A stretch of DNA of 59,344 nucleotides, counting the filler, from Streblomastix strix (Eukaryota), in assembly GCA_008636045.1 (NCBI GenBank). It is 3 parts of 3 records of this genome, joined end to end, with 100 filler letters (N's around TTAATTAATTAA, not from the genome) between each part and the next. Parts side by side here need not be neighbours in the genome. Positions count along the whole stretch, not along the records: positions 39,639 to 59,344 come from SNRW01000493.1; 2 more parts are not named here. One strand, 5' to 3'. A model generated the notes under the pieces. It searched no databases and was not told the DNA's origin. It saw only the letters and a list, made by a program, of their open reading frames with translations. Below are positions 2 to 59,344 of the stretch, one piece after another. The position numbers and the translations under genes were made by a program. The stretch's first letter is position 1. Each line of letters opens with the position of its first letter.

Positions 2-3000
2 TTAGATTGCGAATTACTTCATCACATCATAGATGGTATGATACAATAACCAAATTTGAGATATTCAAACAATTATTTTACTATTTAAACAGAAAATTTG
101 CAACTCGACACAATATTTGCTAAAAAACCAGGAAAGAATATTGCACTTGAGAGTATAATTTCGATTCTATTTGAGCTGCTTATGGTATAATATATTTATT
201 TTATTAGTAAATGTTATATCAACAAATATTTTTATTATATTATTATTTTACATTATTTTTTATATTTATTTTTATTAGTCTCAATCAGAGCATGATAGTG
301 AAGAAACAATGAATATTTTCATACAAGGAATTAATAAACGAAAAGATTTCAAACGCTCTGTTTGTGGGAGAGGCGGAATTCTCAGGAAATCCGCACAAGT
401 CTTTTAACAACCGTTATTCTCAGAATAGATTCTTCAATCTTCTTAATCTGCATCTTCCTTATCTGTTACTCCATCATCACTTACAGCATAATCCATTCCT
501 ATTCATTCACTGTTAAATTTAGTTAATGTGCTTCTTGAATTGACTAAGAGTGGAATTCGTTAGTGGGATCCAATTGAAGCTGATGAATTTTTGAATGAAT
601 TAATAAAGCTTGATGAAAAATTAAATAGAAATGAAAATGAGAAAGATTAAAATGGGAATGAAAAATGCAAACAAAAATTAGAAGATGATGCTGATGAAGA
701 TTAAAATGAAGAAGAAGAAGAAAATAAAGAAACAAAATTCAAGGAAAATATTAAATCATTGGTTTAATTTCTTTCATCAAAAGGATTGAATAAAGTGAAT
801 TCAGAATAATAATCGCAATTTTCATTGATAAATGCTCTTAGACATGAAAATGAATAATTAGAGAAATAAAAAGAAGATTTTTAATCTGCAAATTAGGCAG
901 ATATTGAAGAATTGAAAAGCTAATTGGATATATATAAAGAAGAGATTGAGAAAAGAAACAAAGAATATGAAAGTTAATTAGAAAATGTTAAATAATCTGT
1001 TGAAGAAAAACGAACTGCAGAATTTTAATAAAGAGAACTTGAGGTATAGTTGAATGAGAAAGAAGAAATAATTAAGAAATTGACTGAATCTGAATAAAAA
1101 GAAATATAATTAAGACAAATTGCTGAAGACTAATTAAAAAGAGAATAGGAAGATAATTTTAATAATAAATAACAAGCTAATTCAATAAAGAAATCAAACA
1201 GTGAAATATCAGAAAAGATTAGTTAATTATCATAAATTCTTAATTCTGAAAGAGAATTAAAAGATTGCACATTAAAAGAAAAAGAAATAATAATGATCAA
1301 ATACAATGAAGAACTTCAGAAAAGACTGGAAAGAGATAATCAAATTAAAATAATGAATGAAAATTTAATATTGAAAGAAAACGAAAATTAAAAGTAGAAA
1401 GAGATAGAAAAATGTGAAAGATTAGAAATAATAAAGAATTATGAAAGTGAAAATGAATAATTGATTAAATAATATGAACAAATAATTATACAATAATTGG
1501 AAATTTTTGAAAAATAAATTTAGGAAAGTAATAATGAAAAATAGAAAATATTGAATAATAATAAAACAGAAAATGAATAATTAATTCAAAAATATGAAAA
1601 ATTATTTAAAGATGAAGAAGAAAAATATGAAAATTAAATATAATAATAAAATGAGAAATTAGAAAAAGAAAGAAAATAAAATAAATAAGAAAAGCTTGAC
1701 ATTATCAAATAAAATAATATTGAGAAATAGCAAATATAAGTTAATTCTTAGAAAGACTTATAAGAAATAAAATAAAAGTTTGAATAATAGAATTAATCAA
1801 ATAATTTGCAATTATAATAAGTTAATAAAGATAATAAAATTGAAATAGAATAATTAAAATTATAATTTGCTGAATAAAAATCATAAATAATTCAATAGAA
1901 AGATAAAGATTATGAAATATTATAATAGTATTATAATGATGAAACAGATTAAAGAAAAATATCTGAAGATGAAAATATTAAGTTGAAAGAATAATTGAAG
2001 ATGAATGATGAAGATATTAATAAATTGAAAGTTGATTATGAATAAGAATAGAAAAAGAGATTTGAAGCTTCAAATGAACTGAATACTCTCAAAAATTAAC
2101 ATGATAAGATTAACAAAGATATTATTGAAATGGAATAAAAACTTACAGATTAAGTTTAACAGAGATTAATTTTAGAGAATAAACTCAAAATTGAAAAAGA
2201 AGAGAAAGATAAAGCTATTATATCTTACAGAGAAGAAAAATAGAAAAGAATTGAAGCTGATAAATAAAAGATAATTGCTGATAATATTTTATTAATTGAA
2301 AAAGAAGATAAATTAAAAGCATAGAATAATTCTGAATAATTCAAGAAATAGATGAATGAAGAAATAATAAAACGCAGATAAGCTGAAAAAGAATCAAGAT
2401 TGTCCAAAATTGAAATATCAAAAGCTTAATCAATATCATAGCGTTTAACATAATAAAATAATGAACTTGAAATACGATTAAATGAAAAAGAAGAAAAAAT
2501 CTAAGAATTAATAAAATAAAAAGAAGATGAATTGAAAGATGCTGGATCTAAAGTTGGATTAAAAGAATATGAATTATTTAAAGAAAATGAAGTTTAAAAA
2601 GAATTGGAAAAAGAAAAACAGAAAAGCAATAATATAATACAATAAAATGAATAATTAAATTAATAAATAGAATAAATATTGAATGAAAAAGTAAAGATAG
2701 AAAATGAATTATAAGCTTGCTAAGAATAATTGAATAATCAAACAGCAAAAGCATAAAATGAAGAATAGATAAAAATAAATGAAGAAGATAATCGTAGAAA
2801 AGCTGAAGAAGAAAGAATATAAATAATGGCCTAGAATCAAATCATATTAATTGAAAATGCCAGATTGAAACAGTTATTTGGTGAAGAAAGAACATAAAAT
2901 GAGATTCAAAAAATTGAAGATGAAAAAATTTCTATTGAAAAGGAGATGAATATTCTTTAGTAAAGAATAAAAGATGCTGAACATTCAAAAATGGAAGCTG

Positions 3001-8300: not shown

Positions 8301-9102
8301 TCATACCATAGGAACACCAAATTATTCACATAGCCAGGGGTCCCATTTCAATTCTTTTATATTGAATAGCATCGTTCTGGATGCATTAGTAACATCGGTT
8401 ATGTGAATTCCTGGTTGTTCATCTGAATTTATTTAATTTTGTGCTCCTCCAGTTAAATTCTAATATTATAAATATAGTGAAATTATTTATATTTGTTAAT
8501 AGATATAATTAACTATTCAAGTAATTAAATAAAAATTAAATATTTATACATTTATACATTTATATCAATCAAACATATATAATCCAGCTGTCCATTGTCC
8601 CAAACATGCACCGATTCTCAGAAATTGCTTTACTGATTTCAGGCACATTTCGAACAAGCCAAACAAACTTCAGTGCTGAGAAATATGTAGAAAATGGAAG
8701 TCCGCTTCGATAAGCAAATGCGAATTTGTCCCCGTATTTCGATATGTACTCGTCTACAAGCTCGTTCGTCCGTGTGTCGTGCCATACTATCGCATTATGA
8801 AGTGGTTTCCCACTAAACTTGTCCCAACAAATGCAGGTCTCTCTTTAATTCGTAATTCCAACACCGCAAATCTCGTATTCTTCATTAAGTTTCATTATAA
8901 TATCTTATACGGTCTATTTCAGCATTGATATTATATTCATTATTATTTCTTATCCATCGTGTTCGCAATGACCTGCATGTGGGAAGATCTGCTTGTGCAA
9001 TGTTTGAATTTGTGGGAAGCTTTTTCCGTTTCTGTCAAAGACTATCACACGACTTGATGTGGTCCCGTGATCTATACTAAGAAGAAGTTACCGTTTTGCC
9101 AT
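5357..9102 (-). CDS. glpK: Glycerol kinase (FGGY family), multi-exon
   Basis: ATG at 9102. Motifs: [13 protein letters not shown](TAA=Q)[101 protein letters not shown]. Ends [19 protein letters not shown]. Confidence 0.95.
7411..7538. repeat. 24-bp tandem repeat (about 5 copies) inside a glycerol kinase intron
   Basis: Unit GAATAAGATAATTAGA(ATGGAATT/TTTGAATT), with two variants alternating. Confidence 0.9.
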
Positions 9103-11572: not shown

Positions 11573-11850
11573 TTTGTTATTATTTTTATTTTTTATTCAT
11601 TCATTTCAATTTTATTTTGATTCTTTTAATAACTAATACAAATACTTATTTATTACAATGATTGAGATTGTTACATTTTATGATTAAACTTCATACTTAA
11701 AAAAGATCTTAATTTAATTTTAATTTCCACAGATATATTGAATTTTATTATTAAATGAAGAATTTAAATGATTAACAGAGGTGAATTGAATTTACTTTTT
11801 GAATAAGTAGAAAAGGTAAAAAATATTTAAATCAATTCAATAAAATAAAA

Positions 11851-13415
11851 TAAAATAGGGAAATAGTTTTATATCAATTTGATAAGATGAAGATGAATAA
11901 GATAATCTCAAATAGATTAAAAGAGTGAAATAATTGAATATCAATTTTATAAGAAGAATATGAATAAGATTATCTCAAATAGAATAAAAAAGTGAAATAG
12001 TTTAATATCAAATTGATAAGATTAAAATGAATAAGATTATCTCAAATAGAATAAAAGAGTGAAATAGTTTAATATCAAATTGATAAGATGAAGATGAATA
12101 AGATAATATCAAATAGAATAAAAGAGTGAAATAGTTTAATATCAAATTGAAAAGATGAAGATGAATAAGATAATCTCAAAAAGAATAAAAGAGTGGAATA
12201 GTTTAATATCAAATTGATAAGATGAAGATGAACAAGATAATATCAAATAGAATAAATGAGTGAAATAATTTAATATCAATTTGAAAATATAAATTTAAAT
12301 AAGATAATATCAAATAGAATAAAAGAGTGAAATATTTTAATATCAAATTGATAAGATGAAGATGAATAAGAAAATCTCAAATAGAATGAATGAGTGAAAT
12401 AATTGAATATCAATTTGATAAGATGTAGATTAATAAGATAATCTAAAATAGAATAAAATAGTGAAATAGTTTAATATTTATTTGATAAGATGAAGATGAA
12501 TAAGATAATCTCAAATAGAATAAAAGATTGAAATTGTTTAATATCAAATTGATAAGATGAAGATGAATAAGATAATATCTAATAGAATAAAAGAGTAAAA
12601 TAGTTTAATATCAATTTGAAAATATAAATTTAAATAAGATAATATCAAATAGAATAAAAGAGTGAAATAGTTTAATATCAAATTGATAAGATGAAGATGA
12701 ATAAGAAAATCTCAAAAAGAATAAAAGAGTTAAATAGTTTAATATCAATTTGATAAAAAGAATATAAATAAGATAATCTTAAATAGAATAAAATAGTGAA
12801 ATAGTTTAATATCAAATTGATAAGATGAAGATGAATAAGATAATATCAAATAGAATGAATGAGTGAAATAATTTAATATCAATTTGAAAATATAAATTTA
12901 AATAAGATAATATCAAATAGAATAAAAGAGTGATATAATTTAAAATCAAATTAATAAGATGAAGATGAATAAGATAATATCAAACAGAATAAAATAGTGA
13001 AATAGTTTAATATCAAATTAATAAGATGAAGATGAATAAGATAATATCTAATAGAATAAAATAGTGAAATAGTTTAATATCAAATTGATAAGATGAAGAT
13101 GAATAAGATAATATCTAATAGAATAAAAGAGTGAAATAGTTTAATATTAATTTGAAAATATAAATTTAAATAAGATAATCTCAAACAGAATAAGATAGTG
13201 AAATAGTTTAATATCAAATTGATAAGATGAAGATGAATAAGATAATCTCAAATAGAATGAATGAGTGAAATAATTTAATATCAATTTGAAAATATAAATT
13301 TAAATAAGATAATATCAAATAGAATAAAAGTGTGAAATAGTTTAATATCAATTTGATAAATTTAATTCGAATAAGATAATATCAAATAGAATAAAAGAGT
13401 GAAATAAATTAATAT
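11851..13415. repeat. 67-bp tandem satellite, about 23 copies
   Basis: Consensus AATAGAATAAAAGAGTGAAATAGTTTAATATCAAATTGATAAGATGAAGATGAATAAGATAATMTCA. The GTGAAA anchor recurs at 11925, 11992, 12059 ... 13399, i.e. exactly 22 x 67 from the first. Confidence 0.97.
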
Positions 13416-13426
13416 TCCATATCTAT

Positions 13427-16400
13427 TCACTTTTTCTTTCCCGCATCTTCTTTATCTCCAATTATTGATATTAACATTGGAAATAATTCTTTAGCTTTGA
13501 TTTTTATTTCTTATTTTTTATTTTCATTCCAATTATTATTCCATCTATTCCCCAACCAATCAATATATTCATCATTTGTTAATTATTAAACTTTCCATTT
13601 AATAATTGAAGCAATTTTTAATTTATTGATATTTGATCCATATTTAAGAATTGAAAGTGACAGATTAAGATTTTCAAGAGTATATTAAATATCTCTCAAG
13701 AGTTCCTTTTCAAATTAAATAACAAGAATTGCATCATGGTTTTCTTTAAATATTTATTATATATTGAATATAAAGTAAAATAATAACAAAATTAAATAAA
13801 AAAAATTAATATAAATATATTTAATAATAAATAATTGTTACCTGTGCATTCAGCAAGAAGTGAAAGTTCATAAATATCAATATTTTATTTGAGTTATGCA
13901 ATAACATTATTCCTGATTTCTGGTGGAAGAGGAAGAGATTTGAAAAGATAAGAAAGTGTTTATGCAATTAATCTAAGAATATCTTTATCTTTTTCATCTT
14001 TGAATATTTGAATTAATTTTAGAATTGTTCCATCTGACTAGAATTATTAATGTTGTGGATGTTATTATCCTTCTTTTAATCCATCTAATCCAGCTTTTAT
14101 TATTATTAATATTATAAAAATTGATTCTTATCTGATATCTCCATTTTTTGAAACAAAAAAATTCATCATTAATTGAATAATTCCCATTTCAAATAATTTT
14201 TTTTATTATTCAGTTGGAACATATTAAACAAATGATTTCATAGGCTTAAGAGATCCTTATTTTATTTGAAGAGGAGAAATTGATTTAAGAATATGAATAT
14301 ATTGTTCTAAGAATTTAGTTTCATCAATTATTATTCTTTATACTTTAGAATTGTCTTTGATTAATATTTCTATAATTTCTCCAATAATAATCATTTTCCC
14401 TTCTCCTTCAGATTCTTTTATTGATTTTTCTATTATTTCATTTATTCTTCTTATTAATCCAGCTTTTATTAATTCAATTAATCCTTCTTCACTTTTTCTT
14501 TCAACAACTCTTCTTATTCTTATTAATTCATTCATTGTATTTGGATCTAAATAAGAACTGAGAAGATATTTGATTTCATCTACATAAAATTTATATCCCC
14601 AATTATTCTTTCTATTTTTTATTTTATTAAGTGTTTCTATAGAAATTGAATTTTGAATTAATTATTATGTTTATTAAGATCCAAATAAGAAAAGATTAAG
14701 AAGAAGGAGAAGAGAATATTTAACAGTCTTATATTCAATATTTACATCTTCTGACTCTTTTCTCCTATAAAAATAAATAAAACAAAATAAATTTTAATTA
14801 TTTGAATAGATATATTCTCTTCTTAAACTAATTTCATACTGTAAATATTCAGCAACTGTCTAAATTTCATTTCCATCGATAATTAAATCATGATTATCTA
14901 AGCATGTATAAGAAAATAAAATTAAGTAAAATTATATATAAATTAATTAATAATTTATTTAATTAATTAATTAATTAATTAATTAATAATTAATAATTTT
15001 TATAAATATTTACCTTAATTAACAGCAATTAACGTGAGCGATTCTAATGCAGGATTTCTAATATTACTATTATCTGATTTTGATTAATCACAAAAATATT
15101 TGATTATTTGCTATTTGAGATAGATAGGCAGTTTGATTCCTTCAGAATAAAGAATATCGAGAAGTTCACAAACAATTTTCTTATTCTCCATATCAATTTC
15201 ATTATTCAAAATAACATCTTATATTAAAGTTATTATTATTTATTATTTTTCTAATTAATCCAAATAAGGATGAGGAAGAGAAAGAAGTTACTGTAAGTGA
15301 AATTGAGATGGAGAAGTTGATTATTATTATTATAATTATTTCCATCCTTTCTTAATAACATGAATGAAGGTCATAAGTATTTAATGTTGAACATCTTTTT
15401 CCTTATTCTTCAATTTTGAAGAAAGAATCTGAAATATTCCCATTTAATATAATTAATGAGTTTATTAAGATGATCCATATTGGCTGATTTTTTCTAATGT
15501 TTCAATTATATTCGATTAAATCTTGTCTGTTGGTGCTTCTTATATTTGATTAATTAATTCCATTACAAGTCCTGAATTAATTATTAATTCAATAATTTCT
15601 TCATTTAAATCTAAATTTACATTAATCAATTCAATTATATTTCTAGTTAATTCAATAATTGCAGTTATTATTTCTTAATTTATTTTACTTTAGATTCGAA
15701 TATTAATTGATTTTGAAGTTAATAAAGCATCTTTCAGTTATTTAAATAAACGAAGAGAAGCTTCGAATTAATCTTAAGGAATTTATCTTAATTATTCAAT
15801 TGTTAATGCTTAAATTGGAAGAATAACTTATAATTATGGTTGAGTAATATTAGGTTATAAATTTGGAAATTGTTGAAATTATTGTTATTAATATTATTAT
15901 GGGAATTGAAGAATGGGTTAATATTATTTATCAATTTATGGTTAATATTAATTGATTTGTGGGATTGGTTGTATAATAACATTTTACTATTATATGTATT
16001 AATTATCAAATACAGGTTGTATTGGAAAAGGTTAATAATTTGGAAAAGGTTATTAATTTGGAGAATGTTGATATTATTATTATTGCTGTTGTTGTTATTA
16101 ATGGAGTAAAGATATAGGTTAATATTAAATAAGTTATTATTATTAGTTAGTTGGATTAATAGGAAATTGATGATTATTATATTGAATTTGCGGATTTATT
16201 TGAGGTTGGTTAATAATTTGATTCTATTATTGCTTTTATTGAATAGGTGGAATAATCTGTGCTTTAAATTGTGCCATTTAAACATAAGGATAAACTGGAC
16301 CAATAATCTTATGAACTTCAATAAGTGGAAAAATGAAATTTGGATTAATATCAAATTAATTTATTTTTATATTTCCATTTTGTTAAGCAATTTATGAAGT

Positions 16401-19723: not shown

Positions 19724-19823
19724 NNNNNNNNNNNNNNNNNNNNNNNNNNNNNNNNNNNNNNNNNNNNTTAATTAATTAANNNNNNNNNNNNNNNNNNNNN
19801 NNNNNNNNNNNNNNNNNNNNNNN
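19724..19823. other. Artificial contig linker (44 N + TTAATTAATTAA + 44 N)
   Basis: Exactly 100 nt with a core carrying TAA in all six frames. The three segments are 19723, 19715 and 19706 bp, i.e. sorted by length. Confidence 0.98.
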
Positions 19824-25003: not shown

Positions 25004-25656
25004 ATGTCCATTTTTGAAACTATCTTAAAGAGATACATTGTCGCAAATTTGATGACAAGTCAGTGCCGAAAGAATTGATTAATAAAATCTTAGAGAGTAT
25101 GCGATTTGCACCAAGTGGATTGAATTAGCAAGGATGGCATTTCAGAGTAGTCACGAATCAGAAAATCTATGATAATATTGGAGCAGTTATTGAACCACAA
25201 ATCCTTAAGGCTGGACCACAAAATATTGAAAGAAAACTTCCTGGAATAAGAAACATCACTTTTTATAACGCACCTGTTGTCATATATGCGACAGTCCCTG
25301 TTGAAGCACATCGCATGAAATACATTGATATTGGACTTGCAATTGAGAATGGAGCACTTATTGCTGAAGAGCTTGGTTAGTGTTTTGAATAATTTAATTA
25401 TTTATTTAATTAATTTACAACAAATTTATTAATAAATATAAACATTATATAAATATTATATTTTGTAGGTCTTGGAGCAGCAATTATAGGAACAATCAGA
25501 GAGCTTGGTCCTGAAATTGTCTATAAAACATTGAATATTGATGAAACTAAAGAAGAATACATCATTTCATTGGCGATTGGTTATATTGCAGAAGGATTTC
25601 AGCCACAGATCAGACCTAGGAAGCCAATTGAATAGATTGTAACATTTATTGAATGA
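25004..25656 (+). pseudogene. FMN nitroreductase family gene with a 1-nt frameshift near codon 12 (pseudogene or sequence error)
   Basis: MSIFETILKRY-[AT, 2 nt]-CRKFDDKSVPKELINKILESMRFAPSGLNQQGWHFRVV...YNAPVVI...DIGLAIENGALIAEELGLGAAIIG...LAIGY...RPRKPIEQIVTFIE-TGA. One GT-AG intron at 25376-25468. Confidence 0.85.
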
Positions 25657-32585: not shown

Positions 32586-33174
32586 GAAAGAGTTGATTAA
32601 TAAAATCTTAGAGAGTATGTGGTTTGCACCGAGTGAATTGAGCCAGTAAGGATGGCATTTCATAGTAGTCACTAATCAGAAAATCAATGATGATATTGGA
32701 GCAGTTATTGAACCACAAATCCTTAAGGCTCGACCACAAAATATTAAAAGAAAACTTCCTGGAATAAGAAACATCACTTTTTATAACGCGCCTGATGTCA
32801 TATATGCGACAGTCCCTGTTGAAGCACATCGCATGAAATACATTGACATTGGACTTGCAATTGAGAATGGAGCACTTATTGCTGAAGAGCTTGGTTAGTG
32901 TTTTGAATAATTTAATTATTTAATTAAATAATTTACAACAAATTTATTAATTATTATTAACATTATCTAAATATTTTATTTTGTAGGCCTTGGAGCAGCT
33001 ATTATAGGAACAATCAGAGAGCTTGGTCCTGAAATTGTCTATAAAACATTGAATAATGATGAAACTAAAGAAGAATACATCATTTCATTGGCGATTGGTT
33101 ATATTGCAGAAGGATTTCAGCCACAGATCAGACCTCGGAAGCCAATTGAAGAGATTGTAACATTTATTGAATGA
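32586..33174 (+). pseudogene. 5'-truncated duplicate of the nitroreductase gene
   Basis: Nearly identical to ~25067-25680, including the intron and 3' flank. It lacks the ATG and first ~20 codons, and MRFAPSGLN has become MWFAPSELS. Confidence 0.9.
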
Positions 33175-39538: not shown

Positions 39539-39638
39539 NNNNNNNNNNNNNNNNNNNNNNNNNNNNNNNNNNNNNNNNNNNNTTAATTAATTAANNNNNN
39601 NNNNNNNNNNNNNNNNNNNNNNNNNNNNNNNNNNNNNN
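39539..39638. other. Artificial contig linker (44 N + TTAATTAATTAA + 44 N)
   Basis: Same structure as 19724-19823. Confidence 0.98.
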
Positions 39639-53504: not shown

Positions 53505-55393
53505 ATGTTTTTATAATAAATAAATAGATTCAATCTAATTTACCAATAAATATAATCCATTTTGTAGGGACATTCTGAATATCATTTCAAGCATTTTGTT
53601 AAAAATTACTTTGTTAAAATGAAATTATTTTTCTGGATTAAAAGTATAATAAAAGTAAATTGTAATGAATTTATGATTAACACTGCGTTTTTGAGCTAAC
53701 TTATATTACGAGCGACAAAGAGTGATCCAGAGAAAGAATTGCGATTTATATTATGATAATACAATTAGCGTTTTACGATGGAATAGTTAAAAGAAATTGT
53801 ATAAATAGCATCTGATAATAGTCAATCTGTAGTAATGAAATTGATATTTTATTTAAATAAACGATCTAGAATAATTCAACCTTGTTGGCATTCCGAATGA
53901 AGTTTAATTTTAATGAAATATCTAACATCGGTTTACAATTTATCAGTTCAGATTCGGATAAGGATTTTGTAACATGGTAACCAACTATCTTTAGTGGATA
54001 ATAATGCCATCAAATTATTAATATCAACAACATTCCAATTTATTTAACGAAATGTTTGAATGATAATTAAATAGAAATATAGTATAAATTAATATCTATT
54101 GAATTAAGAAAAATCTATTTATAATAATAAATTGACGAGGATCGGTATTATTGTTAAATTACTAGGAAGATTACTACCAATTCATATTAATTTGAATACA
54201 ACTATAAATAATGCTTATACAAATGATCAAAAAATATATGGATAAAATTTTTTAACTTAGATTACTTTACTTAGCATTTTTAACATTATGTATAGCTTTA
54301 CTAATTCAGTTGAAAAATATTTTAGTCCTTAATCAACTTTGAACAGTGGAGCAATATGCTTTAATAATGCAACGAATGAACATGTATAAAAACTGTAGGA
54401 TAATTTGATCGCATTAAATTAGAATTATGGTCAAGATTTAGTAAATTCAGCTATCTATCACATTAATTTTAGAATCGATGCATTTCTTAATCATAGCTGG
54501 ATTTCAGACGCAATAGTAAATTAGTTATATCGATTGATTGGACTAATAGGATAATATTGTACAACTTCAAATAAATGTACTACGTCAATTGAACCAAAGA
54601 ATTTTACATAAGGTAATGGATTATCAAAAAGATATTTATTTTATAAGTAAGTTGATATAAATACTAATGGAACATTTACTACATCAGATGTTTAAATTTA
54701 TAATGTACAACGAGAAACAAAATATAATTAATCATTAATAATACTAACACATTTCCAGTTAGAACTATTAATTCCTTACCTGCATTTTTAATAGGCGAAT
54801 GGTAATATATTTATACTGGTGTTGGAAAAATAAATTATTATGATTAATTAATACCATATGCTGTAACGAATTAAGTTTTACAAAATAATATTTATTGGTT
54901 CTCTAATTGTGTATTTTTATCTCCAAATCTATACGTATAACTAGTTGGTGGATAAGATCTATATGATGGATAGAATGAAAATGGAGCCAATTAATTAGTT
55001 AATTTATCATCAGCTATTAAACAAATTTATCTCGAAGTATGATTTTATTAAACTAAATATGAAAGTTAAAGTTTAGAATTTGATCTTCCAATATTCTGTT
55101 CATACATTGGGAATTTTCTAGAGTATCCAAAAATGCTGATTATTTATGTATCTAATTAATTATAAGGAATAACTCTTTAATCAACAGGTGGTAATGGTTT
55201 CTCTAATGAACGCTTTAAGCAAAATTTGATTGATGCGCCAGTATTATGGAGATTGAATATGATGAGTCAGTAATGCCATATAGAATAGAACAAATCGTTA
55301 GTTTTTACATTATATGATAACTTTGGAAAAAAGATACCAATGCAATATATGGATAAGTTTAATAATTTATTGTTAGAGATATAATTTTAATGA
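53505..55393 (+). pseudogene. Capsid-like (minor capsid/penton-like C-terminus) gene, degenerate
   Basis: About 630 codons, intron-less, with internal TGAs and frameshifts. It ends SLVFTLYDNFGKKIPMQYMDKFNNLLLEIQFQ-TGA, resembling the single-jelly-roll penton C-terminal strand pair (I.L.D..G..I.......LE.). Confidence 0.45.
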
Positions 55394-55427: not shown

Positions 55428-55981
55428 ATGTCTTATCTAAAGAAAGCGGAGCTAATTAAACTACTCAAAATCAACAATAAAAATGTCAATGAATCATTAA
55501 ATGAAAATTAACTTAAAGATTAACTCAATAAATATTTAGGCAAAATTAATTATAAGAAGAGAGGAAGGAATAACTATAATAATTTGAAGTCACATCTAAA
55601 ATAGATACATTAATACAATCAGTAAATTCTTAAGGCAAGAGATATGACTAATCATTTCAAATAGAATCAATATGATTAAGATTTATAAGAATATAGAAGG
55701 GATTAATTGTAACAATAAGCAGAAATTTACTATGATGATTTATTAGAATAGAATCGATAATTACATTAAGATTTAACTCATTATCACTCAAATTAATATG
55801 ATTAAGATATATTTGAATATCGTAGGGAATAAGAATAACAATAAGCTGATGAATTCTGGACTAATTATATCATTGAGGAATATGAATAAGCTAGAAGAAT
55901 ATTGGAAGAAGAATATGATGCAAACCTTCAATATTAAATAATTACCAAACAAAATAAAGAGATCAATGATAGAAATAATCC
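55428..55981 (+). pseudogene. Truncated viral-remnant ORF cut by the fold-back element
   Basis: MSYLKKAELIKLLK... with an internal repeat, NQYDQDLQEYRRDQLQQQAE / NQYDQDIFEYRREQEQQQAD. Coding-like sequence stops at INDRNNP, where the fold-back begins. Confidence 0.55.
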
Positions 55982-56380
55982 TAAATTTTATTCCATAAAA
56001 ATATTCAAACTAATTAAATTAATAATTTTCATAAATGTAAATATTATAATTTTGTATTAACAAATAATTCGGCGAAAAATATAATTTTCCATTTGCTACT
56101 CCAACTGTATACATAATTCCGAATTGTTTGATAAATTTTTCAATAAAATATTTTTTATTTAAATTATCTTAATCTAATTATACTTTAAGCGGAAAACGCT
56201 GGAGTAAAACGAGAAAAATCGAATTTTTCATTTTTCTCCCAAATTACCTGTGCTGTTATATTAAATTTATTATATTTAATAATTTTTAAATTTTTAATAT
56301 AATATTTTAATAAAAATATCACATAATACTCAATCATTAAGATAAAATTGTTTTTTTTATTTTTTTTCTGAAAATTAAGG

Positions 56381-56424
<44 letters not shown>

Positions 56425-56762
56425 CAATCATACCGTATGATTTAAAAGAAATTTTTTATTGATTGACAAAATATTAATTAAAACATAATAATGAACGGAT
56501 AAGAAAAATAAGAAATTCGATTTTTCTCGTTTTACTTCAGCATTTTCCGCTAAAATTATATTAATATTAAAAAAAATTTAAATAAAATTTTTTTTAAAGA
56601 AAAATAAATCAAACAATTCGGAATTATGTATTCAATTGTGGTCGTAAATGGATAATTGTATATTTTGACGAATTTTTAGTATGTGTAAAATAATATTATT
56701 TTTATTTATGAAAATTATTAATTTAATTAATTTAAATAATTTTATCCAATAAAATTGTGGAT
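55978..56762. mobile_element. Fold-back element: ~260-bp imperfect inverted arms around a (TA)n core
   Basis: ATACATAATTCCGAATTGTTTGAT and AGTAAAACGAGAAAAATCGAATTT occur in the left arm and as exact reverse complements in the right arm. (TA)n at ~56385-56422. Confidence 0.85.
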
Positions 56763-56899: not shown

Positions 56900-58646
56900 T
56901 TTTTAGTATGTTACCATTCCATCAGATGTATAACTCAAACTATATTATAACAATCCAAAACGGCTTTTTCAACTATAAGTGAATTCTACTGACACATCAT
57001 CTGCATTAGTACATACATTGGAAGTACGCAATATAATGATTTTTTAATTCCAGCAATTTTTAATTCTCATTTTGCTAATATTAATGATGTTGGCGATCCA
57101 TCCGCAAATAGAATCTATAAATATTTTCCTTTATAAATTTTTTGAATAATTATGCAATAATAAATTCTTCAAATATCGTTATATCAGTAACAGTTTTTTT
57201 GATGATAAATCCATTAATTTATTAGTATTTGAAGTTATTTTTGAACTATCATTATAAATATTTAGTCGAAAACTAAGATCCTTTGTCAGTTAGTACTATC
57301 CTTATTTTACCAATCGACTCTAATTTAATGGTTGCAGAATAAATATTTGCTGTACCTGTTCCAGTATAGGTATGAAATAGTTAAGTTGCACTATTTTGAA
57401 TCTAATAACTAGAACTAAGTTTTATTAGATGGGTGAATTCTCCATTAATAGTAGTGATATCATTAAAGGAGTAATTTGATTACAATCAAATGATTTAAAT
57501 TACAATGATGGATGAATAAACTTTAATTTCTATGAACAGACTATCAACTCTACTACTAGCTGGAAATACACTTAATCTAACCAATTTACTACCTGAATAT
57601 GTTCTTGATAACTTATTATCTAAATTAGTTGTATCACCATTTACGAATATTATTTTAGTTGTTAATCCTCCAGTTTTAATGAACTTAGTAGCACAAATAT
57701 TATCATCATAAGAAAATTATTTTAAATAAGCATGGTCACGTCTAGTGAAAAAGGCTGATGTTCCATTTGCACCAACACCATTAACGATTGGGATATTTGA
57801 AGCATTAGTTTCAACGTTAACTGGATGTGAATGATCGTTTCTAGCACAAGCAGCAGCAGTTCGATAATCCATCAGCTATATCGGATTGCAGAGATGCATT
57901 AAAGGTTTGAATTGGATATTTATTATCAGATCTTGTATAAGTACTAGCAAAATCAATATTTTTTACTGAAGTATCTTTCTGTGGTAAAGTAGTCGCTACA
58001 ATAATGGGATATATATCATCATCACGTGAAGATTAAGCGCATTTTACTGCAGTTGATGTACCATCAGATAATAGAGTAACATCACTTGTAGAAGTTACTT
58101 AATCAGGAACTCTATCTCCACTATTATACCAATTAACTTCGTACATACGTATTGTTCCACTATCTGCGGTAAAAAAATAACTCCAATATCAGAATTAAGT
58201 AAATTTGTTATATCACCGTTAAATAAATAATATTATCGGAAATGAGTTTATCGTAACAATTCGTCATTCTTGTCATCATCATCATTTTTAACATCAGTGA
58301 TATCTTACTCATTTGCTCTATTTGATTTTTATATTTAATTCAATTAATTAATCAACTAATTAATTTATGCATCAAAATCTAAATTTACAACTTTCAAATT
58401 CATTACTGTTAGCAATCCATTATGTTCTATTTATGATGCATATTCTGATGCAATTTCATCAACGATTTAAATATTATCTACATAAATCAAAAAGTTGTTA
58501 TTATCTATGAATAATTGTTAGTCTTTATTTGGCTTTAATCCTTAACTTGAACCACCTAGTTTCTAACACAAAATATATAATGCAATTTCATTGGTGAAAA
58601 GTTAACTAACGGTTCGAATATTTTGTTTCGATAATAAGTTGTTCAT
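56900..58646 (-). pseudogene. Bacteriophage tail-fibre-like protein, degenerate
   Basis: ATG at 58646, a coiled-coil segment, then FTADSGTIRMYEVNWYNSGDRVPDQVT and four ~32-aa repeats ending SRDDDIYP / TRSDNKYP / ARNDHSHP / TRRDHAIQ. These are followed by ATKFIKTGG..IIFVNGD and a later QILFADGS. Frameshifts present; 3' end approximate. Confidence 0.65.
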
Positions 58647-58704
58647 TTCAATAAAAATAAATTGATCGAGTTTCATCACCAACTTTGTTGGCGGGCATAA
58701 ATGC

Positions 58705-58914
58705 TCAACAATATTTATTTTCAAGATGATCAATTGAACCTACGAGGTTAGCTCCTGCACCTAATTCATCTTTAATTGCTGAATGATTAATTAATATTGG
58801 TCTTGATATTTTTGTTAAAACTTTACATAATGCTGATGTGAAACATTATGCTGCTTTTTTAACACCATCTAATACTTTCGACCCAAAATTTGCTATTCAA
58901 GAAAAGAAACCCAT
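58705..58914 (-). pseudogene. Small amphipathic-helix protein, adenovirus pVI-like membrane-penetration candidate
   Basis: 70 codons: MGFFS*IANFGSKVLDGVKKAAQCFTSALCKVLTKISRPILINHSAIKDELGAGANLVGSIDHLENKYC-TGA. The codon-6 TGA is one substitution from GGA. Confidence 0.5.
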
Positions 58915-58919
58915 TTGAT

Positions 58920-59344
58920 TTATTATAAAACTTTTACCATAAACATCCATTCCGTTTCATTAATTTTTGTTTCAATGAAATGTTATTCAATTCTAATGAT
59001 TATCTTGAACACTTAACATAAACACAACATTCGGATTACTTCAGTGAATATACGTGTCTTGGAAGAGTTCATAAAGCATTATCTATCCATCTTCAATCAT
59101 TTGAAATATCAAAGCAAAATTGCTTCGATTTTCCTATTATAAAACTAACATCGTGTGGAGTCATATATACTAGAGCACCATTAGGAGCAAGAGGTAAATC
59201 AGCATGTTCAATGGTATAAACTTGTTAAGTAAATTGGACAATTACAATACCTAAAAATACATTAGCGATATAATTAAATAAAACATATAATGACTGGAAT
59301 ACTGCAGGTAAATTAATCGCACGAACTAATTTCAATGGTAAAGA
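58920..59344 (-). pseudogene. 5'-partial degenerate ORF of the viral remnant
   Basis: QVYTIEHADLPLAPNGALVYMTPHDVSFIIGK...LPRHVYSLKQ...LELNNISLK in one frame with two internal TGAs; intron-less. Confidence 0.45.

Follow-up and report, generated by a model that had tools for sequence, protein, structure and literature searches.

Streblomastix strix is a termite-gut oxymonad. Its endogenous viruses use genetic code table 6, and these elements have already been argued to be viral on the strength of their capsid genes, according to the available part of the published account (PMC10120064). That part, which describes the Metamonada Maverick-Polinton group, treats the capsid gene and does not name the small gene discussed here, and the metamonad elements remain ungrouped in the available text of a later study (10.64898/2026.06.19.733378). 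No report of particles from metamonad Mavericks was found in the literature searched, as far as its accessible text extends. In animal viruses, by comparison, membrane-active virion proteins have been proposed several times in the portions of the sources at hand: Cupiennin, GasderminX and PLA2X of adintoviruses (PMC8502044), the Macc class (PMC11071296) and LO6 of adomaviruses (10.1101/341131). Compared by description only, Cupiennin, Macc and LO6 are, like the candidate described here, small predicted membrane-active proteins of the virion module of Polinton-type viruses, but they belong to animal viruses and their activity is predicted, whereas S. strix is a protist. Mavirus, which also infects protists and belongs to the same broad group, has a predicted amphipathic helix at the C-terminus of its capsid protein that has been proposed to act in endosomal rupture; in the excerpted source this helix is cleaved off the capsid protein (PMC6048507), while the S. 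strix helix is encoded by a separate gene. Finally, adenovirus protein VI (pVI) is made as a precursor that is cleaved, and its helix both acts as the lytic part and binds hexon, according to the part of the source seen (PMC8310329).

The stretch of S. strix DNA analysed here (the window, 59,344 nucleotides) consists of three joined contigs, with N linkers at 19724-19823 and 39539-39638 that have a TTAATTAATTAA core, so that neighbours across the linkers mean nothing. Within the window, the longest open frames reach 1359 and 1323 amino acids under table 6 and 130 amino acids under the standard code; the standard code was thus rejected in favour of one in which TAA and TAG encode Gln. The 1359-codon frame (46090-50169, minus strand) is a host frame with a signal-like start, a beta-rich body and a C-terminal hydrophobic stretch, and its product is likely a surface protein. 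The window also holds a tandem array of about 26 copies of a 67-bp unit, 85-90% alike (11710-13483), and two copies of what we take to be a nitroreductase-like gene, 94% identical and 7.5 kb apart (25068-25656 and 32586-33174, both plus strand). Another frame (8569-9102, minus strand) presumably encodes a glycerol kinase-like N-terminus.

The locus of interest, at 58705..58914 on the minus strand, is a decayed gene of 69 codons. It would encode a small cationic protein, rich in Gly and Ala and of amphipathic helical build. The reverse complement of the locus, 210 nucleotides long, reads from an ATG through a TGA at codon 6 and a TAA at codon 23 to a terminal TGA. Since the TAA, which follows KKAA, encodes Gln under table 6, the product has 69 residues and is not a 22-residue peptide. 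The peptide given in the initial annotation matches this translation letter for letter, except at codon 6 (58897..58899), which is a premature stop in the window copy. The suspicion that this codon would be GGA elsewhere was borne out: position 58899, an A in the window, is C in contigs of other copies, which turns the codon into GGA; this was seen in 27 contigs of sequencing run X1 (depth 26735/26802) and 5 contigs of run X3 (depth 126.5/126.5), two runs that come from two studies, X1 possibly from the same source as the window. Across 50 aligned protein copies, residue 6 is Gly in 38, Lys in 10 and Arg in 2. The window copy is 64% identical to the intact S. strix protein P0003 and, set against the commonest intact protein, has changes at 25 of 68 sites (63% identity); the median intact copy differs from that protein by about 10%. 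With so many sites changed and a long branch within its group in the tree, the window copy is evidently decaying, and the stop at codon 6 means that the protein cannot be made from it. The stretch 58705-58914 is therefore a real gene that has been pseudogenised in the window copy, and its codon pattern is gene-like, with a G-rich first and an A/T third position.

That the frame is kept among element copies, as the reading in the initial annotation requires, is evident from a search with intact P0003, which retrieved 73 clusters with intact relatives of 68-69 amino acids and about 160 member sequences; 71 of these clusters are named Streblomastix strix, one JGI and one Logan. An alignment of 50 of the 73 clusters, with fragments and mis-started models left out, displays conserved Gly2 (45/50), Asn9 (50/50), Lys13 (47/50) and Trp24 (44/50). 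A hidden Markov model (HMM) built from it matches 83 proteins at E values up to 0.001 among 1.84 billion, including several S. strix subfamilies that are 40-60% identical to the window's type, as well as the 52-residue P0183 (E 4.5e-4). A more distant group among these matches, P0180 and P0186, comprises proteins of 102-110 amino acids that are about 35% identical to the window's type; in a profile-profile comparison the family and this group matched over 69 columns with a probability of 98%, a figure obtained at low alignment depth that helical periodicity may inflate. Two Preaxostyla clusters in the Atlas lie close to the family (0.97 and 0.96), and a 92-residue cluster with Parabasalia members (0.89) is a lead only. 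P0180, P0186 and the relative encoded at 802-1110 of contig L002 end in a basic extension that contains a DSPRI motif and is missing from the S. strix proteins. In a tree of 20 rows, 11 of 17 inner branches stay open, and the columns are too few to place the pVI-like motif of one subfamily as ancestral. Searches of IMG/VR with the family, P0062, the upstream frame, the fibre, the distant family and the L002 capsid gave five blanks and one false match, L001, which was rejected as a relative because it is a Gly-rich phage gene; one metagenome scan for relatives was likewise blank.

The most characteristic property of the protein is a continuous amphipathic helix over codons 3-37 (58804..58908, minus strand), to which periodicity, helical wheel and an all-helical model all point. 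The alignment has a 100-degree periodicity over residues 3-36, and in intact copies the helical wheel places Ile7, Phe10, Ile14, Val18, Val25, Leu29 and Val32 on a hydrophobic face and Lys, Asn, Ser and Gln residues on a polar one (Lys13, Lys19, Lys20, Lys31, Asn9, Gln23). The basic amphipathic character claimed at the outset is confirmed by the hydrophobic moment of residues 3-20, which at 0.60 is reached by 0.12% of 5000 shuffles; among 1411 other ATG-led 18-mers in the window, three reach 0.58 with a charge of +2 or more, none of them with Gly2. The same moment averages 0.54 +/- 0.07 in 51 full-length copies. Beyond these copies, the cationic amphipathic N-terminal helix is kept in all ten proteins tested across subfamilies (moment 0.49-0.69 and charge +2 to +5, with shuffle p values of 0.001-0.009). 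Whole proteins carry a net charge of +6 to +14, and their C-terminal half, rich in Gly and Ala, holds a weaker helix. The predicted structure is a single helix (pLDDT 75, pTM 0.33); a fold search of this model against viral structures returned no matches and was uninformative.

The suggestion that the N-terminal MG might be myristoylated fared less well. Gly2 is present in 71 of 81 full-length copies, but the PROSITE-type motif G-{EDRKHPFYW}-x(2)-[STAGCN]-{P}, which Phe3 breaks, fits 4 of the 81, and with Ser or Thr missing from position 6 the pattern MGxxxS/T fits 0 of 81. Such motifs are known to give false negatives, as stated in the available text of PMC1885993; judged by the motif, N-myristoylation of the small protein is not supported.

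The genomic surroundings are consistent with a virion gene module. As initially noted, the gene lies about 60 bp upstream of another gene on the same strand, whose in-frame ATG at 58646 follows the small gene's stop by 58 nucleotides (another ATG lies at 58676). This downstream gene (57261..58646, minus strand), delimited by tblastn with P0084, P0118 and P0133, by its repeats and by its start, is frameshifted in the window copy and its 3' end is not fixed; its N-terminal stretch stays in frame in the other copies P0119, P0123 and P0126. In relatives it encodes an N-terminal coiled coil followed by RxDHxH repeats about 31 amino acids apart. On account of this build, and of the phage-tail-repeat fibres reported in Trichomonas elements in the accessible part of PMC12220804, the gene is likely a fibre gene. 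The label is confirmed by no library: searches against phages and the PDB gave no match, and a weak PHROG tail-needle match (E 0.003) covers the coiled coil only. In 21 of the 83 HMM matches the gene model runs from the small gene on into this downstream gene. The public S. strix models P0084, P0117-P0133, P0116, P0148 and P0173 join the small gene by splicing either to the fibre or to the upstream frame, probably through errors of annotation. On the other side, upstream, lies a conserved coding region (58977..59344) that is common to 13 of the 83 matches, open on both strands and truncated by the end of the window. It was considered as a capsid gene on the plus strand, but a suggestive in-register alignment, the best of 60 samples, was lost under fair controls, and none of eight models of the region as a capsid gene exceeded z 1.5. 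The window stops 430 bp upstream of the small gene, so the element is cut at 59344. Further down, two inverted-repeat arms, about 80% alike (80-82% in the repeat search), flank a (TA)n run at 55978-56237 and 56502-56762; the latter is a candidate decayed end of the element that carries the small gene, and the pair may mark two decayed elements whose ends face each other. A frameshifted gene at 54060-55393 (plus strand) perhaps belongs to a second element. Its C-terminus, which has no Pfam match, resembles what we take to be a Polinton penton.

A direct connection to a capsid gene comes from one contig, L002, which uses the standard code and in which the distant relative at 802-1110 (plus strand) lies head-to-head with a gene at 2-736 (minus strand). 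The latter reaches a score of 0.97 against capsid clusters of the Atlas, one of which has Capsid_N in 49% of its members, and eight of its ten best named Atlas matches fall in one family or clan; the recognition value for this assignment, 2013, is below the 2300 mark, and a single-sequence fold of the capsid piece, at pLDDT 30, was set aside. By eye, the gene product looks like the S. strix capsid protein in Table S3 of PMC10120064, as far as that source was available. The gene is thus predicted to encode a double-jelly-roll major capsid protein, and the link of the small gene to a capsid is this one contig. Points in common with the published Metamonada group are the host S. strix, the use of table 6 in viral genes and this resemblance of the L002 capsid gene.

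How far the likeness to the adenovirus pVI lytic helix extends, a comparison drawn in the initial annotation, depends on the subfamily: it is closer in a sister subfamily than in the window copy, and nowhere did it yield a significant pVI match in Pfam or the PDB. The Pfam profile MCPVI (PF02993) matched none of the 4, 50, 26 and 20 proteins scanned, and in Pfam not one of the 50 family members has a match below E 0.17. Against the PDB, a broad profile placed pre-protein VI twelfth of 13 matches, aligned on the lytic helix (E 6.8). With the N-terminal 24 residues of the sister-subfamily protein P0198, picked as query because they looked most pVI-like, six of seven matches were pVI chains (E 0.3-1.9), with residues 3-16 aligned to pVI 40-53 within the lytic helix and 8 of 9 identities in a nine-mer; that nine-mer, WSGLKNFGS, is present in 10 stored proteins. 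The same type of test gave no match of any kind for the window's subfamily or for the distant relative, and neither did full-length P0198 match anything in the PDB. The nearest named Atlas clusters, cecropin (0.77) and pre-protein VI (0.76), lie below 0.8 and hence at chance level. An ILGG-type motif, presumably an adenovirus protease site, falls within the helix of 56 of the 81 full-length copies, as expected by chance in a Gly-rich protein.

Side by side, then, pVI and the small proteins have in common a cationic amphipathic N-terminal helix, a nine-mer that reads WSGIKNFGS or WSGLKNFGS at pVI 41-49 (PDB 6b1t, 7s78, 7tau) and WSGLKNFGS in one S. strix subfamily, and, in L002, a small gene beside a predicted capsid gene. 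They differ in that pVI measures 217-266 amino acids against 68-110 for the family and its distant relatives, that pVI is a precursor trimmed by the viral protease at its two ends, whose 33-residue propeptide has no counterpart before the helix of the small proteins, and that the PPxY motif of pVI is found in none of seven small-protein representatives; the match itself is confined to 12-14 residues, is not significant and does not exist for the window's subfamily. With no significant profile or chain match, these sequence comparisons do not place the protein in the pVI family, although it is predicted, and likely, to work in a similar manner. Descent from a common ancestor and convergence of Gly/Lys/aromatic helices explain the likeness equally well. 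It is doubtful that the 68-residue proteins are true minimal homologues of the lytic helix; if they were, a stand-alone entry peptide beside the capsid gene of protist Polinton-like viruses would represent what adenoviruses elaborated into pVI by adding a propeptide and trafficking signals.

On balance, we lean towards a model in which this conserved gene of 68-69 amino acids in S. strix Polinton-like endogenous viruses encodes a virion-associated product predicted to bind and rupture a host membrane at entry. The protein would be packaged within the capsid, where its hydrophobic face would be shielded, and released after fibre-mediated uptake; its helix would then lie along the inner leaflet of an endocytic or food vacuole, with Phe, Ile, Val and Trp sunk into the bilayer while the lysines contact anionic head groups. 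The broken membrane would let the core reach the cytosol. As the helix begins at residue 3, no protease would be needed for its exposure, unlike in pVI. Conservation of the helix across subfamilies that differ by 40-60% supports this model. It is rather unlikely that the protein acts instead as a non-lytic internal cement or scaffold, its hydrophobic face on the inside of the capsomer and its lysines binding DNA. Amphipathic helices in general also act as capsid cement or in binding to proteins. The predicted capsid gene next to the distant relative in L002 and the net charge of +6 to +14 would suit such a role, and pVI binds hexon via the same helix that is lytic, so that the two roles are compatible (PMC8310329, available part). 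Yet in all ten proteins the moment and charge of residues 3-20 describe a surface-seeking helix while residue identity drifts, a pattern more readily explained by a lipid partner than by a fixed surface on another protein.

The gene's position between virion-type genes also argues against an unpackaged membrane-damaging peptide, be it a lysis factor for egress, an effector of abortive infection or a peptide of the cecropin kind directed against the host's bacterial symbionts. A weak antimicrobial likeness (uperin E 0.17, a frog peptide E 0.34, cecropin 0.77 in the Atlas) and holin-like pore formers proposed for egress or defence in such viruses, in the text available of 10.64898/2026.10.13.758929, are compatible with that possibility, which we regard as quite improbable given that the protein lacks a signal peptide and its helix starts at residue 3. 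Very improbable is a membrane anchor, with or without myristate, that would serve an internal lipid layer or the assembly of capsids at host membranes: Gly2 in 71 of 81 copies and the long amphipathic helix would fit it, but the myristoylation motif occurs in 4 of 81 only, helix capping is another explanation of Gly2, and an internal membrane finds no support in this analysis. That the frame is a chance product of a repeated element is scarcely tenable and in substance refuted. The window copy does carry a stop and forms the long branch of its group, and repeat copies would share any frame through descent; against this, subfamilies that lie 40-60% apart, as well as a standard-code element with 35% identity, preserve the length, the start and the helix, and the codon pattern is that of a gene.

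In the favoured reading as an entry protein, the S. strix proteins likely join the class already proposed for animal Polintons, and since membrane-active core proteins have been proposed there, the finding is less surprising than at first sight. The Macc-type trait of being encoded with virion genes is seen here as well, with a predicted capsid gene adjacent in L002 and a likely fibre gene adjacent in the window and in 21 of the 83 matches. A description of the S. strix small gene was not found in the available parts of the literature searched, which included 10.1101/2025.02.07.637071, 10.1101/2025.04.19.649669, 10.64898/2026.06.19.733378, 10.64898/2026.10.13.758929, PMC11296320, PMC11161782 and PMC8097293. 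On that reading of the literature the proteins constitute a new, undescribed small gene family of metamonad Polinton-like viruses, and they likely act as membrane-active virion proteins. The small gene offers a marker gene as well as a handle on the origin of adenovirus pVI, and as a conserved candidate of 68 amino acids it bears on how naked capsids cross membranes. If its role as an entry protein were confirmed, it would mean that the elements of S. strix have kept an entry function and not only a capsid gene.
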